Origin: Octopus vulgaris
Taxonomy: Eukaryota
DNA length: 64,000 bases
NCBI GenBank assembly: GCA_951406725.2
Contig: OX597816.1
Coordinates: 54,684,001 to 54,748,000 of the forward strand
Direction: 5' to 3'
Each line of letters opens with the position of its first letter. The stretch's first letter is position 1. Positions 3,110-58,230 of the stretch are shown here, one piece after another. The notes under the pieces are model-generated. The model searched no databases. It saw only the letters and a list, made by a program, of their open reading frames with translations, and had not been told where the DNA came from. The position numbers and the translations under genes are program-made.

Positions 3110-3413
3110 GTGGAGGCGCAATGGCCCAGTGGTTAGGGCAGCGGACTCGCGGTCGTAGGATCGCGGTTTCGATTCCCAGACCGGGCATTGTGAGTGTTTA
3201 TTGAGCGAAAACACCTAAGGCTCCACGAGGCTCCGGCAGAGGGTGGTGGAGATACCTGCTGTACTCTTTCGCCACAACTTTCTCTGTTGGCCTGCTCGTT
3301 TAGCCAGCGGGGTGGCGTCATTTGAAGGCTAAAAAACAATGCGAAGCGCATTGTGACCAGCGACGTGTAGCAACATCTGATAGCCTGGTCGGTACGGTCA
3401 CGGTCACGGTGAT
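3110..3413 (+). mobile_element. SINE family C with RTE-like tail type 2
   Basis: Full A/B-box head; tail ends GACCAG...CTGGTCGGTACGGTCACGGTCACGGT. Confidence 0.8.
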
Positions 3414-3416
3414 TTG

Positions 3417-3448
<32 letters not shown>

Positions 3449-3870
3449 CGCATGTGTGTATGAAAGTCCACATGCATGTGAGTGTGCTTTGAGAGAATGA
3501 TGCAAACGCAGGCAAGATTAAAGACACGGAGTCGTTCTGCTTTTGTCCCTCTCACCATCACATATGCTACAAACCGTTGCTGAACAGGATGAAAGCCAGT
3601 CACCATCGGAGACAATAATAAAATGCAGTCACCATCGGAGACATATCTCTACAGTTTGCCGTATGAGAATTCGCAAATAATAAATTGAAACAGAAATATC
3701 TGTACCTCTGTTTTCTTTTCTTTTTTTTTTTATTGTATTATACAAACACTATCTCATGTTCCCTCTCTATCCCGCTGTAATTTTGTTTAACCTGTCGTGT
3801 ATGTGTAATAGATATATTTACTTATAGAGAAATACAAATATATACGCATGAACCATACCTGAATACATGC

Positions 3871-9768: not shown

Positions 9769-11028
9769 TGTGTCTGTCTGTCATATTATCCATGACTGTG
9801 GAAGTATACTTTCAAGTGTAGCCGTCACGTGACGGGTAACACTCAAGTCAGCTCATATGTTTTAAAGTACTCAATCTAGTGGGCGATAATTATCAATTTT
9901 ATACACAACCGAAAGAGCTAATGATGGTTTCCTGATTCATGATAGTTTAATAAGGCATATTTGTAAAATACATCATGTATCTCCAAGTAATCTTTCAGGG
10001 CCTGTTTATGCGTTAAATATATTTTTAAAACGAAGGACGCTGGACAGTGAGCAGTTTCTCAATTACCAAACCGATTTCGGCATTTATTTTGTTTACCAAT
10101 GGTAAAAAATAAATAATTAAGGGGATTAGGAGAGTTCAAATTTACAAGGGTAAATTCGGAAAAACATATTTAAACGATCAAATGTTCAGATATTCATAGA
10201 AATTTCAATGAGTTTCAAAGAAATAGACATCATTAACTGTTTAAATGTTCGATGACAATCAAAGCAAGTATACACGGTTGAAATTTCAGTGATATTGAAT
10301 TTTCATAAATAAAAGGGACAGAAATAAAGAGAAAGAAAAGAAGCTTTTTTTTACAATTTCTGTCGTAGTCAATATAAAAGCCCTACGTTCATTTCTGTCA
10401 TAGTACATGAAGTTCTTCCTCGTTGGTCACTGGTTTAGATTTCAAAATGTTTTAAGTTGGAATTTTTTAGAATATATAAATGTTTTTACTGGAAAAAATC
10501 AAATTTTGATTCTTGGTAAATTTGTTGACGTCATTTCTTTTCTCGTGGATGTTTTGGTCAAATATTTTTGTTTTGTCAAAATCCTGCGCTCTTGTTTGTT
10601 GACTTCCTGGTAACGTCATTTGTTTATCTAACGTTTTCATTTCTTGTTGACCATTAGAGGTCCACTGCTCTGTTCACTTGCTGATTTATTTTCTGCTTGC
10701 GTTGATTTATTGTTGTCAAAGGACTTGTTAACCCGTTTAAGTGTTCCGGTTGGTTGGTTCCCGTATACATAACTGTTTGTAAACCTGGTTTCGTATTTGA
10801 ATAAATCTATTACAAATTTTAAAACGACTACGAGTTTTGAGATTCAGAAGCATTTTCAAACCCCGAAACAAATTCTCCTACATTCGTTACTGCGTGGGAA
10901 TATACACTTCTTCTCCCCATATATATATATATATATATATATGTAGGTCCCGGGTTGATTCGGGGTTAACCACAGTAAATAAGGTACTCAAAACATAGCA
11001 GAGTAAAATTAATTTATTATATAGAAGG

Positions 11029-11079
11029 AGCTTCTACAGGACTAGAACTGTTTCATTCAAGAGAAATCTTCAGGAAGCT
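11029..11079 (-). ncRNA. type I hammerhead ribozyme in pLTR
   Basis: Reverse complement of 17413-17463. Confidence 0.8.
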
Positions 11080-11701
11080 AGTTAACAAGAATTGTATTGG
11101 CATTTATACATTTAGGCAGGTTTAAAGGGGTGTTGGTGGGGGACTTTTTGGGGGTAGGCATAGCGCAAAATATCATACTTGGGGGAGTGGTCAAGGAGTC
11201 AGAGTTAAATTAGATAGAAGAATAAATAAAAAATAAAAAATTAAAAAATAAAAAATATATATATATATATATATATATAAAAAAAGGGGGATAGAGTTTT
11301 AGGTAAATTCTCACTTATACCTATGCACATATGTATACATATATACACACGCATACAAACATATACATATACATACACACATACATACACACACATATAT
11401 ATATATATACATATATATACACTTACACATACATATACATATCTACACATACACATATATGTATACATACACACACTCACATGCATACACGTATACACAC
11501 ATGTATATATACACACACACGACCACACATACATATACACACAGAAAAATATATATACACATACACACACATACTCACATACACGCATACACACACAAAT
11601 CCACACACACACATGCACACCCAGCACACTAGTCCCTATATACACATATATACACATACACACATATATATATATATACATACACACACATACATATACA
11701 T

Positions 11702-11770
<69 letters not shown>

Positions 11771-12174
11771 CGTGTACCTATGCATATCTACACATACACA
11801 CATATATATATACACATACAAATACAGACCCATTCCCTAATTTTAATTTTATTATCTTCGTTTATTACTTTTGTTATCTTTGGCCGCTTGGTCACAAACA
11901 TCTTGGCTATGACAGCCAGTCCATTTATCTGTCTACTGGAAAACAAGCACTCATTCACTCACGCACACTCTATAGCACGTACACTCACTCATTCGTACAC
12001 TCATACACATACACGCACGCACGCGTTATATTCACATACATCTACATACATTCACGTATATACACATACGTACGCGTACCTACAGATTCATGTCTACACT
12101 CTTAGAAGGCTAGTCTATACATATACACCAATAAATATAAATACACACACATACACGTACACCTACATACAAAT

Positions 12175-12244
<70 letters not shown>

Positions 12245-12464
12245 TCACATATATATACAAATATATACATACACACACATACATACACATATATACACAT
12301 ATACACACATATACACATATATACACACATACACATACATACATATACACACATACACATACATACGTATACATACATACATACATCCATACATCCATAC
12401 ATACATACATTTATACACATACACACACCCACATACATACATATATATACGCGCATATATATAT

Positions 12465-12515
<51 letters not shown>

Positions 12516-12919
12516 CATATATACATATATATTCATACACACACATACACATACATACATACATATACAAATATACGCACACACATACATACATACTCAT
12601 ATACTCATACACACACATACACATGTACATGCGACCCTTACACGCACACACACACGCGCGCGTCCATATATACACATAAGTACACCCATGCGTAAGAGTA
12701 TACATATATCTATGCTTACACATACACACACACACACGCGCCTCCTTATATTCATACTTACATGCATACTCAAAAAATAAGTAAATAGTAAAATATATAT
12801 ACGCGCAGTTATTCATACATGCATACTCAAAAAATAAATAATAAATAATAAATATTAAGTATATGTACGTGCAGTTACCTATTATATAGACGGATACATA
12901 CATATAAACTTACACACAT

Positions 12920-12982
<63 letters not shown>

Positions 12983-13059
12983 TATACATACATATATACA
13001 CATATATATACACATACACACATACATACATATATATATATATACACACACACACACAT

Positions 13060-13090
<31 letters not shown>

Positions 13091-13279
13091 CATACTTACA
13101 CATGTACATATAAATACACACATAGATAACTCTACGTACCTACATATACATAAACACACGAGCGTACGCGTATATGTACATATACACATACACATACACA
13201 CGCATATATATACATACATACATACACATACACACATGTGTATACACATACACACACATACACATATATATACATACAC

Positions 13280-13328
<49 letters not shown>

Positions 13329-13497
13329 TATATACATACATATATATATATACACATACACATACACACACATATATACATGTGTGCAAACATACATACA
13401 TTCTCATACAAGCACACTCACTTACATTTACATATATACACACACTTACACACATATATATACATACACATGTACATACATACATACATTCATAAAT

Positions 13498-13570
<73 letters not shown>

Positions 13571-13654
13571 CATACATACATACACAAACACATACCCATA
13601 CATATATATACACACATATATATACACATGCACATACTTATATCTCTACATACT

Positions 13655-13696
<42 letters not shown>

Positions 13697-13952
13697 CATA
13701 TACACACACACATACATATACCTATATACATGCATATATACACATACATATATATACACATCTACAATTTGTATCTACACTCACATACCTGCACATACAC
13801 ATAACTCTACATACCTACAAATACATCGCCATACTCGCGTACACTCATATATATACACATATATACATATACACACACACATACATATACATATACATAT
13901 ACATATATATAAACATATACACACACAATACACATATACACACACACATACA

Positions 13953-13984
<32 letters not shown>

Positions 13985-13999
13985 CATACATACACACAC

Positions 14000-14050
<51 letters not shown>

Positions 14051-14714
14051 CATACATATATATATATATATACATACATACATACACATATACATACATG
14101 TACATATACACATACACACACACATATATATACATACACATACATATATCAACAATTGAGGGTAAGGTTAATTAGTTATTAATCAATTTCACCAAGTATT
14201 CAGTTGTAAAAGGACCATTATTTTTATGAGTAAACAATGTCTGAGGGAAAATATTCTCTAAGTAGTGGAAGAGGCTAAAAAACTTTATTGGCTGCTATTT
14301 CTAGAAAGTTCAGTATGCGGCAGAGTAATTTACCCCACTAAGCCCTAATTATATAATATTTTATACATACATACACATACATACACACATACATATACAC
14401 ATACATATGCATACACACATATATACATATATACATACATACATCTATACATATATACACACACACACACACACACGCACATACATATATATATATATAT
14501 ATATACACATATATATATATATATTTTTACATACATACACGCACACACACATAATACATGCGTATAATCCTACTATACCCATACATTTCTATACATATAT
14601 ACGATACACATATACAAGCGTGCACATACAATATGTGAAAGGTCTTAGGAGAAAAGGTAATCGGGGGTGCTAGGGGAACGGTGGGATTGGGGGGGTTTTG
14701 TGGGTGGGGTGTCA

Positions 14715-15970
14715 TCAATCTGGTTGCCGGGTAGGTCTATAGTTCTTGTAGTTCGCATACTTCTTATGCATACAATTTGGGGAGTGTTCTGAGATTTTGT
14801 TAAGGAGAGGGCCTTTGGCGAACAAGATCTCTAGGCTCTCCGATATGCAGAGGTCACAGCAGGTATGGCCTCCTGTGTACGAGCGCGCCTTCTGTAGTAG
14901 TTTCCACTTGGTCTTGAAGGGGATGGAGTTCCTTTTAAGGTACCAGATGTGGGCGGCGAGGGTAGTTTGGTTGGATTTATCTTGTCGCCGGAACGAGTGT
15001 GTGTGTGCGTACCAACGGGTCTTAAAGCTGTTTGACGTCATTCCTATGTAGGATTTTCTTTTATCGTCAGGGCCTGATCTTACCTCGCATGTATATACTA
15101 GGTCCCTCTGTAGGCAGTTGTTGTTGAGGGGGCAGGTGGTTTTATCAGGGCAGTTGCAATTGCTATCGGACGTTGGATGGGCCTCGGAAAAAGTAGATAT
15201 GTTAAGTTTTTTCACATTGTTGTTGGCTAGGTTCCTGGCTAGATTGGGCGTGGTAGAGTAGGAGAGTCTAATAGTGTTCTTATTTAGGATAGTGTAGTAC
15301 TTATGTTGGGTGGGGAAGTGTTTCTGTAGGAGAGTGAAGAAGATTTTAGCTACAGGTGTAGCGACCTCACGGTTGAAGGGGGGTTGTACCAGCTAATGTG
15401 TCTTCGTCTATTTTTCCTGGGTTGGCGTGGGGCTATACTAGTATAGGTAATCTTATCTTTGAAGCCACTGCGGGCCAGGGCCTCGTTGTAATAGGGGGCT
15501 GCGGCCTTAAAGATATCTTCCGTGGCGGACAGGCTAGAAATTCTAATTGAGACACTTTTTACTAGGTTATCTAATATATTTTTGGGGTGGTTGGAATTAA
15601 TATCTATATATTTAAGGGATTCATTCGGTTTGTGGTACGGGTAATAAAGTGAGGTTTTTAAGTCGAGGGTGACATCAAGGAAGTTAGCTTTAGTTAAGTT
15701 GGATTCTAAGGTAATCCTAAGGCCTAAGTTTTTAAAGAAGGTGTAAAGATTTTTCCGGAGCCCATCCGTGGTCCTGGGGTTTATTTTGTGGAGGGCGAAA
15801 AGGCCGTCATCGCGGTAAAGACCACCGGAGAGGCCTGTGAATAGGGTTTTCAGCCTATGGAGGATGAAAAGGCCCACTAGGTCACTTATTTCAGCAGAGT
15901 CGTTAGCACCCATGCTGACGTCGAAGGGGGGTCACAGATTTTTTGTTGATCCAGTGGGATCCGTCATAGA
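14715..15970 (-). CDS. PLE reverse transcriptase C-half plus GIY-YIG endonuclease (two frameshifts)
   Basis: FDVSMG..DSAEISDLVGL, GLYRDDGL, NFLDVTL, SNHP, WYNPP, CNC..CPL..C, LVY..SYIGMT, CDLC..E..LLNK..E...C.H. Frameshifts lie in G6 runs at ~15380 and ~15928. Confidence 0.9.
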
Positions 15971-16250
15971 AAAGAAAAGAAAAGAAAAGAAAAGAAAAGA
16001 AAAGAAAAGAAATATATATATGGATATATATATGCGCGTATATATATGTATGTATGTGGGTGTGTGTATGTGTATAAATGTATGTATGTATGGATGTATG
16101 GATGTATGTATGTATACGTATGTATGTGTATGTGGGTATATGTATGTATGTGTATGTGTGTATATATGTGTATATGTGTGTATATGTGTATATATGTGTA
16201 TGTATGTGTGTGTATGTATATATTTGTATATATATGTGAATATATATATA

Positions 16251-16301
<51 letters not shown>

Positions 16302-16705
16302 ATTTGTATGTAGGTGTACGTGTATGTGTGTGTATTTATATTTATTGGTGTATATGTATAGACTAGCCTTCTAAGAGTGTAGACATGAATCTGTAGGTAC
16401 GCGTACGTATGTGTATATACGTGAATGTATGTAGATGTATGTGAATATAACGCGTGCGTGCGTGTATGTGTATGAGTGTACGAATGAGTGAGTGTACGTG
16501 CTATAGAGTGTGCGTGAGTGAATGAGTGCTTGTTTTCCAGTAGACAGATAAATGGACTGGCTGTCATAGCCAAGATGTTTGTGACCAAGCGGCCAAAGAT
16601 AACAAAAGTAATAAACGAAGATAATAAAATTAAAATTAGGGAATGGGTCTGTATTTGTATGTGTATATATATATGTGTGTATGTGTAGATATGCATAGGT
16701 ACACG

Positions 16706-16780
<75 letters not shown>

Positions 16781-17196
16781 ATGTATATGTATGTGTGTGT
16801 ATGTATATATATATATGTGTGTATGTGTATATATGTGTATATAGGGACTAGTGTGCTGGGTGTGCATGTGTGTGTGTGGATTTGTGTGTGTATGCGTGTA
16901 TGTGAGTATGTGTGTGTATGTGTATATATATTTTTCTGTGTGTATATGTATGTGTGGTCGTGTGTGTGTATATATACATGTGTGTATACGTGTATGCATG
17001 TGAGTGTGTGTATGTATACATATATGTGTATGTGTAGATATGTATATGTATGTGTAAGTGTATATATATGTATATATATATATGTGTGTGTATGTATGTG
17101 TGTATGTATATGTATATGTTTGTATGCGTGTGTATATATGTATACATATGTGCATAGGTATAAGTGAGAATCTCCTTATTTACCTAAAACTCTATC

Positions 17197-17231
<35 letters not shown>

Positions 17232-17412
17232 TTTTATTTTTTTATTTTTTATTTTTTATTTTTTATTTATTCTTCTATCTAATTTAACACTGACTCCTTG
17301 ACCACTCCCCCAAGTATGATATTTTGCGCTATGCCTACCCCCAAAAAGTCCCCCACCAACACCCCTTTAAACCTGCCTAAATGTATAAATGCCAATACAA
17401 TTCTTGTTAACT

Positions 17413-17463
17413 AGCTTCCTGAAGATTTCTCTTGAATGAAACAGTTCTAGTCCTGTAGAAGCT
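17413..17463 (+). ncRNA. type I hammerhead ribozyme in inverted pLTR
   Basis: AGCTTC-CTGAAGA-tTTCtcttGAAt-GAAA-CAG..CTG-TA-GAAGCT: 6-bp stem I, canonical core, GUA cleavage triplet. Confidence 0.8.
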
Positions 17464-17474
17464 CCTTCTATATA

Positions 17475-17520
<46 letters not shown>

Positions 17521-20296: not shown

Positions 20297-20690
20297 TACA
20301 TATATATATATATACTCTTTACTCTTTTACTCTTTTACTTGTTTCAGTCATTTGACTGCGGCCATGCTGGGGCACCGCCTTTAGTCGAGCAAATCGACCC
20401 CGGGACTTATTCTTTGTAAGCCCAGTACTTATTCTATCGGTCTCTTTTGCCGAACCGCTAAGTGACGGGGACGTAAACACACCAGCATCGGTTGTCAAGC
20501 AATGCTAGAGGGACAAACACAAACACACACACATATATATACATATATACGACAGGCTTCTTTCAGTTTCCGTCTACCAAATCCACTCACAAGGCATTAA
20601 TCAGCCCGGGGCTATAGCAGAAGACACTTGCCCAAGATGCCACGCAGTGGGACTGAACCTGGAACCATGTGGTTGGTTAGCAAGCTACTT

Positions 20691-22910
20691 TATTTCATAA
20701 CATTTGCCATAAAGGCAGTACATAGAGTAAGTTAGCTTTGCGGGCTGGACGAGGACATTAATGAAGTGAATGATAATGAAAGAAAGATGATGGGGATGGG
20801 AGAAGACAAAAAGCGCTTCTCTAAAACATTGTTCTTTTAAAAACAAACACAAAACGAGGTATTAAACCTCTTACAATTTCTACAACTTTTCAATTTTTGG
20901 ACTTAACAGTCCATTACTAATAACAACATAGTTCAATAATTACATATATAAATACAATACACAAAGCCCCTCCTCCCAGACCTGGCTTACACTTCCCTTA
21001 GGAATGCGCCAGCTCTAGGTCGGGGCCACTCAAGTCGTATCACAATTTGACTCGTCCTCGAAATAAATTGTGCCCTCATCCTCCACCATCCACCACGCCT
21101 CCCTCAGAATGTAATCGAATTCCGAGTTAGCGTCGCCCGGGACCAAGCTATAATCCTCATTGAGCTCCTTCAGCCCAAGCGTCACGTCGAACGCCACGGC
21201 CTCCACAGTTACCTGCGGAAGCCATTCGGGGTCCTGTGTGAAGGCTAAAGGTGCTCCCTTGTGGTGCTTTTCCATCACCTTTTCAATCTCTCCGCCTCTA
21301 TAGAAGAGGATCAATACCTCGTTTTTGCTCGGGTGCGGGATATTCAATTCTTTTGTTGGCGGCACAGTTCCCGCCAACGGTATTTCTTCTCCTGTCGGTG
21401 GCACAACCCCAACCGACGTAGTTCCGGGACATTCCGATGCTGTGTCACCGACAGCCGGTAATGTTCCGTTTCTCTTCCTCTTTTTCTTTCTTTTCTTTTC
21501 AACTGAGGGAGGGTGCATCTCCTCCGTGGCCGGAAGATTCGCCTTTCCCTCCTCATCCCTAGTATCCTTTGGTGAGCACCCATTGTTGCTCACCTTCCTC
21601 TTTCGGCCTCTGTTTGAGGAGTCCTCCGCTTCCTCGGCCGTTTTCATTCCCTCTTCTACAGGGGTTTCACTTAACTGTTCCGGGATCCTATTTTGTTCCC
21701 GGGGACAGTTCTTCTTTATATGGCCGGACTCCAAGCACCGATGACACTTAGGGGGACGACCCTCAAGCATCACCGGGTACCTGCACCTGGCCATTTTCAA
21801 AAAATCTGGAAGAACCAGATTGGCTGATTGGGTCCAAAGGGTCAAAATTGCTTTTGACCCAACCCAAGCAGCCGCAGGAAAAACTTTCACATTAAGGAGC
21901 TTAGTTTCGCTGCCACCCAGACCCCGGCGGATAGTCTCCTCTATCCACTCGGGTTTTATCCCGGGTGGCAGCCCGCAGATCCAAGCTTTCGTCAGTCTCT
22001 TTTTTGGTACGTGGGCAGGAATAAAATTTCCTTACCCTCCAGGGGTTTACTAGCAAATTTGCAAGCCTCTTCAGGGGTGTCAAATAGCAACCACACCGTT
22101 GCATATTTGACACCCCTGGAAATGAATTTAATTGTTGGCAAATACTCTGCCAACTCCTTTTCAATTGCCGTCCTTTCGAATTGGGCGATGGTGTCGAGTG
22201 CCTTGGAGTAGGTTCTCAACACCACCGTCCTATCTTCACGGTCTTTTAACCACATTTCAGGCGGTATAATCTCCCATTCCAAAATTTTGTCATTTTTCAT
22301 TGCCATGTTCCTTTGTTTTGTTTTTTTTAATATATTCAAAATAAACTTAAAAAGCGAGAAGAAAAAAGTTCAAAAGTCCAAATAAAATTTGATAGATTTT
22401 TGAAAGTCAGTAAACTGCAAAACAAAGCAAAAATCTTCTGGCCTTACGGTACTCCCGGCCTGAGTTGAACCTGGAACGCCGCAACTGGAACACAACCTCC
22501 ACAAAAATTGGTCCAAAAGGTAATCCAAAAGTGGCTTATTCTTATAATTTTCTTGCGATATACTCCGACAAAGGAATAAATTCAACAAACCCAACCACAG
22601 CACTGGCCACCGCCAACGGTAATTTTATCAGTAACTGTATTGGGTTTCGAGGATACGCGCCTCCACTGTTTTTTTTTTTCAATAAATACAAAAACGGCAG
22701 CCGCCGAGAGCAGGCGAAATTGTCTCAGAGTTGGACACAACTTACTGAAATAATAATTAGCACGCAATAAATTATGCCCAACTCACAATAAACAAAATCA
22801 CTCACCTCGACAACTTTCCGTTTTTGGTCTTTTTTCTGTAATTGGACGGAGCTGGTTAACTCACGTCCACTCTGGCTCAACAGGAAGCAACTGACTAACT
22901 GCGCATGTGT
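20691..22910 (-). mobile_element. ORF1-only non-LTR retroposon (HAL1-like / Tx1-L1-derived)
   Basis: 15-bp TSD GTTAGCAAGCTACTT at 20676-20690 and 22911-22925; ~600-nt 5'UTR, one ORF, ~340-nt 3'UTR ending at AATAAA; no RT. Confidence 0.8.
21030..22306 (-). CDS. LINE ORF1-like nucleic-acid-binding protein with CCHC zinc knuckle (~425 aa after one frameshift fix)
   Basis: ORFs 21992-22339 and 21030-21890 join if one A is added to the run at ~22000 (YQKKRLTKAWICGLPPGIKPEWIE). Contains CHRCLESGHIKKNC and basic KKRKKKRKR. Confidence 0.75.
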
Positions 22911-22952
22911 GTTAGCAAGCTACTTACCACACAGCCACTCCTGCGCATACAC

Positions 22953-40965: not shown

Positions 40966-41122
40966 GATAATAATGATAAAAATAATAATAATAATAATAA
41001 TAATACAAAATGCATATTTTTGCCGATCGGCATCGAAAGTGTGCAATCCAAGTGTTGTACTAAATTGCTCTGTCTATTGTTGCAGAGAAGTAGAAACTCG
41101 TAATCTTCCCTTGCCATCACCC

Positions 41123-41123
<1 letters not shown>

Positions 41124-41171
<48 letters not shown>

Positions 41172-41178
41172 CATTATT

Positions 41179-41217
<39 letters not shown>

Positions 41218-41343
41218 ATTGTTGTTGTTGTTGTTATTATTATTATTATTGTTGTTGTTGTTATTATTATTATTATTATTATTACTGTTGTTGTTATTAT
41301 TATTGTTGTTGTTATTATTATTATTGTTATTATTATTGCTATT

Positions 41344-41416
<73 letters not shown>

Positions 41417-41505
41417 GTAGTAGTAGTAGTAGTAGTAGCAGTAGTAGTAGTAATAGTAGTAGTAGTTGTAGTGATAGCTTTAGTATTAGTTTGAGCAGTA
41501 GTTGT
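41124..41505. repeat. compound (TTA)n/(TTG)n/(GTA)n microsatellite
   Basis: Directly visible; explains the poly-Leu ORF. Confidence 0.95.
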
Positions 41506-42457
41506 TGTTTAGGTCCAGGTTACAGTACAAAGCTAACGAGGAAAAATATTCCAGTCATAGCCAACCTTACATTTCAGGGGAACACGCTATCCCTCATTAC
41601 TTGTATGATTTAGCAATCAGTAAGATGCATTTTCGTTGCTTTTTAGGAAGGGAACAGATGAATTCCAAACACATCATGGATTCCTCTTTTGTCATTAAAA
41701 TGACGGCCCGTGTCAAGGCAAGATCTGAACCTGTATCTCTTCATTCACTTGACTAAACAACCTATCTGTCCACACACCACTCTGTCAACTAATGTTAAAA
41801 AAAATAAGCCTGCATTTCTGTTAGAAAGGAAACGTTAATTAAATTCTGTGAACACCAATAAAATGTTTGCAACCATAGCTGATATGAGGAGGTGGCTGAC
41901 ACACCAGTCATTCGCTCCTCTTCCCTCTCCTCTAGTACTAAGTCTATGGTGAAATATGGCATTAAAATTTATGATCGCTATTCATCGATTATTCATCAGT
42001 TTGTGTATCTATAGTAACACGATGACGGTCGTTTCTTATTGGCTTAATAAGCTGTACACTGAAAGACAATATATGCGAGTGGTACCATTAAGAAGGAACC
42101 GTTGTAAATCAAATGTGACAGATCAATAAGTGATATATTTCATGGCACTGCAATATTAATAAACTGTTCGAACGGTGTCAGTGGTATTGTCCTGTTTAGG
42201 TTACAATACTAACTATGCGGGGATTGAAAAATATGGAAGGCTATAACATATTCAGGCAGATTTCGCTACAATTGTAAGCTCATACGCTATCATTGTGTCA
42301 ACTGCAAACTACGGAGCAGTGTACAGTTTCATACAGCCTACTGTGCATTATAAAACACTAATCAGATGTTATGTAGTTTAGTATAAATTCCAAAAGATGA
42401 AAGTCTGTACAGAAACTATAAACTACGGGAGACTTTATAGTTCCTATGTTGACTACC

Positions 42458-57821: not shown

Positions 57822-58230
57822 TCTCTTTTCTCTTTTACTTGTTTCAATCATTTGACTGCGGCCATGCTGGAGCACCGCCTTTAATCGAGCAACTCGACCC
57901 CGGGACTTATTCTTTGTAAGCCCAGTACTTATTCTATCGGTCTCTTTTTTGCCGAACCGCTAAGTGACGGGGACATAAACACGCCAGCATCGGTTGTCAA
58001 GCAATGCTAGGGGGACAAACACAGACACACAAACATATACATATATATATATATATATACATATATACGACAGGCTTCTTTCAGTTTCCGTCTACCAAAT
58101 CCACTCACAAGGCATTGGTCGGCCCGGGGCTATAGCAGAAGACACTTGCCCAAGATGCCACGCAGTGGGACTGAACCCGGAACCATGTGGTTGGTTAGCA
58201 AGCTACTTACCACACAGCCACTCCTGCGCC
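57822..58230 (-). mobile_element. SINE family A, complete copy
   Basis: Minus GGCGCAGGAGTGGCTGTGTGGT (A-box), GGTTCAGTCCC (B-box), TTGGGCAAGTG (CORE-like), internal (TA)n and LINE-like tail. Confidence 0.9.

Follow-up and report, generated by a model that had tools for sequence, protein, structure and literature searches.

The window analysed here is a 64,000-nucleotide stretch of Octopus vulgaris DNA in which the head of a SINE is interrupted by an element with an ORF1-type coding region and neither reverse transcriptase nor endonuclease. The question raised by this locus is whether the element is the truncated remnant of one LINE insertion or belongs to a lineage that spreads without an ORF2 of its own and, if so, by what machinery. 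The element very probably belongs to an ORF1-only lineage that inserts at a fixed position, one exact base, within an abundant octopus SINE. An L1/Tx1-group LINE of 5.1-5.45 kb occupies the same base, and its ORF2 likely mobilises the short element in trans.

Structure of the element in the window

The insert was placed between identical 15-mers on the minus strand, and its coordinates bear out the 2,220-bp element described in the first-pass annotation. The following features were assigned.

20691..22910, minus strand: ORF1-only retroposon, 2,220 bp, with a 5′UTR ∼95 bp shorter than that of sister copies (∼2,330 bp)
22911..22925, minus strand: 5′ copy of the 15-bp target duplication; last 5-7 nt often borne by the element family, not by the locus
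22307..22910, minus strand: 5′UTR of the window copy, 604 nt
21030..22306, minus strand: ORF1 of the window copy, broken by a one-base loss at 21999; the intact 427-aa counterpart is L007 (P0001)
21765..22228 (approximate limits), minus strand: predicted tandem RRM region of ORF1 (AlphaFold2 model, pLDDT 69; top Foldseek matches are two-RRM proteins, E 2e-4)
21705..21746, minus strand: single CCHC zinc knuckle, from sequence (Pfam zf-CCHC E 0.007, under the curated cut-off; 11 of 19 relatives match)
20691..21029, minus strand: 3′UTR of the window copy, 339 nt, without poly(A); no ORF2 remnant detected in it
20705..20717, minus strand: 4-bp hairpin common to the autonomous LINEs, with compensatory changes (alignment and fold)
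20689..20694, minus strand: AATAAA across the element/target junction, with no poly(A) after it
20676..20690, minus strand: 3′ copy of the 15-bp target duplication, running without break into the SINE body
22926..22946, minus strand: host SINE head with an A-box-like motif at 22927-22937 (motif and comparison with the empty site)
20321..20675, minus strand: host SINE body with a B-box-like motif at 20649-20659, a microsatellite and a tail (comparison with the empty site)
about 57823..58230, minus strand: uninterrupted copy of the host SINE, 92% identical, used as the empty-site control

The ∼425-aa open frame attributed to the element does not exist in this copy: relative to intact L007, the frameshift at 21999 leaves 104 aa followed by a second frame. 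The CCHC knuckle was found as described, and the lack of reverse transcriptase and endonuclease was upheld, with no ORF2 similarity anywhere in the 64-kb window. Two other descriptions held in part. The 15-bp duplication stands as a pair of identical 15-mers, but the end of its 5′ copy is often the element's own; the AATAAA reported to end the 3′UTR is present, but spans the junction, and two of its A's fall in the target duplication. A chance origin of the duplication was rejected. At least three types of 5′UTR occur among copies that match at 90-96% downstream. Elsewhere in the window, a large inverted repeat was noted at 11012-17480, with 84-98% complementarity between its arms across several hundred bases, and a tandem array with a 9-bp period at 41081-41515.

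Host SINE and target site

Comparison with the uninterrupted copy placed the insertion point one base past the A-box-like motif and ahead of the B-box-like motif of a SINE in the same orientation, in agreement with the earlier placement between the A and B boxes. The insertion thereby parts the A box from the B box. The SINE had also been said to have a tRNA head. Its box-like motifs and a fold with a tRNA-like acceptor stem and T arm favour this, but no tRNA match was obtained for the head with Rfam at E<=10, nor for the window with ARAGORN; the label therefore rests on the motifs and the tRNA-like stems. The literature search yielded no match between the host SINE and the named octopus SINEs, and no family name was assigned. 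In locus L020 the host SINE head is abutted, just upstream of 894, by a sequence that we take to be a U6 snRNA-like copy.

Exact-match target sites comprised 779 filled and 94,977 empty sites. Because only ∼0.8% are filled, we read insertion here as a safe-harbour strategy, not as control of the SINE. One SINE variant is over-represented as host of the youngest families, at 8 of 10, compared with 19 among the first 100 empty sites listed. More diverged ORF1-only families (L097, L099, L100, L101, L102, L104, L105, L106 and L117) were observed at the same position in a different SINE variant. The distribution of host variants suggests that targeting tracked SINE subfamily turnover.

Copy number and site specificity

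The genome was searched with the window element as a DNA query, and at least 40 loci were scored out of 3,130 candidates. Copies were 90-96% identical. All 30 retrieved loci ended at a common 3′ base, and in 26 of them the element ran directly into the SINE body. Specificity was assessed with the terminal 23-mer of the family, which is blind to the flank: it occurred 54 times and was followed by the target word in 49 cases. Of 53 distinct flanks, 45 were SINE body, five were the target word followed by other sequence (three of these resemble the start of a neighbouring element) and three lay elsewhere. An 18-mer spanning the junction gave 812 matches, against 21 for the control.

Junctions were classified in 60 loci, the first listed, which together hold 61 junctions and all lie on contig 1; chosen by junction pattern, this sample is unfit to measure specificity. 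By script, 23 junctions were ORF1-only and 20 ORF2-bearing, the other 18 being short or unclassified; by eye, L062 was recognised as a further ORF1-only copy, giving 24. Continuation into ORF2 was seen in none of the sampled ORF1-only copies. A second search used the Octopus sinensis relative of ORF1 as a protein query; 138 matches were scored, 30 further ORF1 loci were retrieved with 1.5-kb flanks, and ORF2 similarity was found in the flanks of none (0/30). The ORF1-only unit is therefore spread in multiple copies with a shared end and without ORF2, as the first-pass annotation had proposed by analogy with HAL1, and its insertion sites are non-random. Neither a single copy, nor the continuation of all homologues into ORF2, nor random flanks was encountered, and the interpretation of the element as an ORF1-only retroposon at SINE heads is supported overall. 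A one-off truncation was rejected on the multiple copies, their common ends and the lack of continuation into ORF2 in the sampled copies.

Many copies are 5′-truncated to varied lengths and have duplications of ∼7 to 15 bp, as expected of target-primed reverse transcription. Short inserts of ∼140-150 bp at the site in L039, L083, L092, L157, L172 and L176 begin at a near-identical position in the 3′UTR; they are possibly a minimal non-coding derivative or the product of a truncation hotspot. In L069 (about 3390-3470) two element 3′ ends lie in inverted orientation at the target site.

A LINE at the same base and a shared 3′ end

L1/Tx1-group LINEs of 5.1-5.45 kb were found at the same base of the SINE, and share the last ∼37 nt with the short element, as anticipated for an autonomous partner with a common 3′ end. 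The LINE in L038 (5.45 kb) has an intact 467-aa ORF1 and a 1,133-aa ORF2 with endonuclease, reverse transcriptase and zf-RVT domains; the best relative of this ORF2 among solved structures was L1 ORF2p (E 8e-67, compared with 6e-20 for R2). Its family is young, with a mean distance of 0.8%, and open frames of at least 1,133 aa were counted by eye in 14 of the 150 listed ORF2 matches. An apurinic-like endonuclease, a reverse transcriptase, a C-terminal zinc domain, a type I ORF1 and a target preference, all features of Tx1-type elements, are present, the preference being read from observed junctions. From its ORF1 type and targeting the partner is best described as Tx1-like. No junction with the SINE target was seen in more distant LINEs (60-66% ORF2 identity; L126-L130). 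L136 and L143 are counted among the targeting LINEs because of their ORF2 similarity; their stretches showed no junction. At 491-520 of the window, minus strand, there is a 30-nt match to the LINE 3′UTR.

At the DNA level the short element resembles the LINE over its last 37 nt and nowhere else. A 4-bp stem in this region was 93% paired across 45 distinct ends (atypical L069, L075, L080 and L082 excluded), with 13 double changes, ten from C-G to U-A and three other. Pairing as high was obtained in 0 of 500 shuffles and in no slid register; related rows inflate this covariation control, and the hairpin is only 4 bp. The stem was present in both minimum-energy folds, while folding z-scores for the whole region (-1.07 and -0.43) were not significant. 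The terminal eight bases were fixed by the search pattern and hence are no evidence. A shared 3′ stem-loop with compensatory changes would fit 3′ recognition by a stringent-type LINE, a concept taken from PMC3747384, with putative binding by ORF2p.

ORF1 domains, descent and selection

The N-terminal part of ORF1 was modelled with a pLDDT of 69 and matched two-RRM proteins, with the single CCHC knuckle following; the full-length model was poor (pLDDT 41). Pfam identified no RRM family in ORF1 and gave zf-CCHC alone. An Atlas search returned clusters with CCHC and ZCCHC3-RBD at 0.88-0.93, which is taken as a lead only. The ORF1 of the partner LINE has a CCHC at the Pfam cut-off and aligns with the modelled RRM region of the short element. 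An RRM and CCHC layout is that of type I ORF1 (PMC4120745), which has been tied to Tx1 (PMC5203782). Named protein relatives come from Octopus and Argonauta. In Octopus sinensis, the annotation lists one relative among uncharacterised host genes, and an integrase-like gene model includes a fused short piece of ORF1 (P0002, P0003); the lineage thus has an impact on annotation.

A tree of ORF1 was built with 15 outside homologues added. The ORF1-only proteins, including that of O. sinensis, formed one clade (support 100/100) on a long branch, which fell outside the ORF1 of the co-located LINEs, with a support of 53/65 at its base. On these sequences the ORF1-only lineage is an old one, with a single origin within the sample. 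As it does not nest in the partner clade, descent from the present LINE lineage is a candidate origin only. The element may instead have taken its ORF1 and 5′UTR from another Tx1-like lineage and, in the manner of SINEs, acquired its 3′ tail from the SINE-targeting LINE, with the same mechanism of insertion. Such tail capture is a serious possibility, though somewhat short of even chances. It would account for an ORF1 about equally far from the partner ORF1 and from other homologues (22-33% identity) and for the 37 nt that are all the element and LINE have in common, and the joint in L145 between an ORF1-only element and a truncated LINE points the same way; however, a long branch after loss of ORF2 would give the same tree, and the base of the clade has the support of 53/65 given above. 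An ancient deletion and tail capture both appear viable, and 'half-LINE' is not meant to suggest that the element arose by recent deletion from the partner LINE of today.

A division of labour like that of HeT-A and TART, in which the ORF1 of the short element gives the targeting that the LINE needs, is improbable. The two do share arrays and occur in similar numbers at the site, but the LINE retains a full ORF1 with its own CCHC knuckle, and in Tx1-type elements the endonuclease has been reported to set the target (PMC4494074).

Selection on ORF1 was evaluated within and between families. Among 28 copies, private changes seen in a single copy were neutral (292 nonsynonymous, 106 synonymous; ratio 0.98), and shared changes were depleted of nonsynonymous ones (52 nonsynonymous, 33 synonymous; Fisher p 0.034 for changes in at least two copies, p 0.058 for at least three). 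Three within-family pairs gave dN/dS of 0.33-0.59; two loci had too few codons. Between families, 21 comparisons over the N-terminal 205 codons gave dN/dS of 0.09-0.42 at dS of 0.7-2.8; the counts are rough and close to saturation, and every pair includes L007, so that they are not independent. ORF1 is under purifying selection between families, and the within-family signal is marginal.

These values bear on the view that deletion in an autonomous LINE gave rise to the short elements as dead copies, in which ORF1 is a functionless passenger. Most copies are indeed broken, the window copy included, and ORF1 is homologous to the LINE ORF1 (31% identity, E 6e-25). This view is nevertheless very unlikely, given the low dN/dS between ORF1-only families at such dS and the single clade of their proteins. 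Moreover, stop-free frames of at least 413 aa were counted by eye in 33 of the 138 scored matches, and no LINE with an ORF1 close to that of the short element was found among families sampled at about 60-100% ORF2 identity.

Independent insertion and arrays

Divergence of inserts was compared with that of their host SINEs. For the window family, 23 of 30 loci were used, two duplicates and five loci without full SINE flank being excluded; inserts differed by 0.038 (3.8%) and hosts by 0.097 (9.7%), with no Mantel correlation. A sister set (10 loci, 414-aa ORF) gave 0.015 (1.5%) and 0.063 (6.3%), respectively, also with no Mantel correlation; two of its inserts, in hosts that differ by 4%, were the same across 900 nt. 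In the LINE set, hosts were >10x more divergent than inserts and the Mantel correlation was positive (rho 0.60, p 0.001, n=10; one host has an internal deletion). Rare target variants were found on both sides of the insert in L015, L016, L058, L072, L086, L148 and L172. Spread of one or a few insertions by later copying with their SINE or by segmental duplication has the common flanks of L012-L014, the enrichment of young families in one SINE variant and the positive Mantel result of the LINE family in its favour, but is the least credible of the alternatives and was rejected, as host SINEs that differ by up to 15% contain inserts that differ by 0-0.6%, 5′-truncated copies of many lengths have duplications of their own, and unrelated families and LINEs occur at the same base, stacked in tandem.

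Arrays of two or three elements were found in single SINE heads, with ORF1-only elements and LINEs mixed in tandem in L032, L133, L138 and L139. In L140/L141 (G000:C9:2663000-2682000) three 5.45-kb LINEs lie head-to-tail within one SINE head. The L145 joint (G000:C4:127352000-127359500) connects an ORF1-only element, inside its 3′UTR, to a 5′-truncated LINE, and the target word is absent between them.

5′ junction and proposed mechanism

In full-length copies the 5-7-nt end of the 5′ duplication was borne by the family at 6 of 6 informative LINE loci and, for the 5′ type of the window, at 8 of 8 informative loci scored by eye (L004, L005, L019, L020, L113, L116, L153 and L166; degenerate L017 set aside). 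A second 5′UTR type gave a mixed family and locus pattern. From the family-borne end we infer a transcription start inside the upstream duplication and a leader that would help 5′ joining. Read-through by Pol III from the SINE was rejected by inference, the boxes being split and the 5′UTR containing T runs. The 5′ ends of L001, L003, L041, L050, L055, L057 and L097 contain GCGCATG-like or TTCCGG-like words within ∼20 nt of the start, presumably akin to NRF1 and ETS promoter motifs. Assembled contigs from 4 of 24 listed sequencing runs cover the element; this coverage is uninformative on transcription, strand and ends.

Architecture, targeting and selection are established by the observations above. 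For movement of the element, mobilisation in trans by the LINE is favoured and would proceed as follows. The RNA would start inside the upstream duplication and thus have a target-derived leader of 5-7 nt. ORF1p, a predicted RNA-binding protein and putative chaperone, would coat its own RNA in cis, which would be the reason that ORF1 is kept. The LINE ORF2p would bind the 3′ hairpin and terminal motif, and its endonuclease would nick just past the A box and prime reverse transcription there; the exposed T's would pair with the junction A's, so that no poly(A) would be left. At the 5′ end, joining would come about by pairing of the leader with the second overhang. Insertion would regenerate the site, making head-to-tail arrays possible.

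A broader picture can be drawn tentatively and is rather doubtful as a whole: an old, still mobile 'protein-coding SINE', not derived from its present helper, that captured the helper's 37-nt tail and keeps ORF1 in cis with ORF2 in trans, as part of a three-tier system (SINE, SINE-targeting LINE and LINE-dependent half-element) following successive SINE subfamilies.

Comparison with known systems

The literature search gave no description of an ORF1-only element paired with a SINE-targeting LINE; Repbase, Dfam and the published repeat library lie outside this comparison and may already contain these families. The literature compared also included PMC4758252 and PMC8869645. In the 2026 repeat annotation of Octopus vulgaris (PMC13282606) L1-Tx1 is given only as a count, 80 families; the words 'target', 'ORF1' and 'non-autonomous' are absent from its main text.

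Target-specific LINEs of the Tx1 clade include Tx1 in Tx1D, Tx1-Mar in Mariner-N4, Keno in U2 and Kibi/Koshi in microsatellites (PMC4494074). The octopus LINE is likewise an endonuclease-RT LINE at a fixed site within another repeat, but here the target is the promoter region of a SINE; the parts of that account drawn on here contain no SINE target or ORF1-only partner. SINEU-3 of crocodilians, with Tx1-Mar, is similarly a non-autonomous element at the target of a Tx1 LINE (PMC4494074), but it is a non-coding U2 derivative, whereas the octopus element encodes a conserved protein. R2 and R2/R1 SIDEs are non-autonomous and site-specific through a 3′ end in common with the LINE, with a 14-bp TSD at the R1 site, and resemble the octopus element in these respects; they differ in having a 5′ ribozyme joined to the 3′ end and an rDNA target (PMC3414825).

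HeT-A of Drosophila encodes Gag/ORF1 only, is targeted, forms head-to-tail arrays with RT-bearing partners (TART/TAHRE) and has an ORF1 under selection (PMC5537684). The octopus element is alike in its ORF1-only coding, its targeting, its arrays and the selection on ORF1. HeT-A extends chromosome ends, a service to its host, whereas the octopus element forms TSDs at dispersed, internal sites on many contigs and has no known host role.

Insertions of HAL1 are poly(A)-tailed and dispersed, whereas the octopus element has a base-exact site, no genomic poly(A) and a mollusc host. The ORF1 also differs: that of the octopus element is predicted to be RRM-RRM-CCHC (type I), and that of HAL1 is of the L1 coiled-coil/RRM/CTD type (Transposase_22). 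Both are non-autonomous, ORF1-only and multi-copy, HAL1 (half-L1) being a mammalian element that encodes only ORF1p (PMC5753468).

The short element and its LINE bring together an ORF1-only retroposon and a target-specific LINE of Tx1 type, each a known trait, at a SINE promoter target not found reported. With intact young copies of both, a minimal common 3′ signal and a base-exact target, they offer a natural means to ask why ORF1 is retained in some non-autonomous elements. In its way of working the octopus element resembles HAL1 or HeT-A, without belonging to either.
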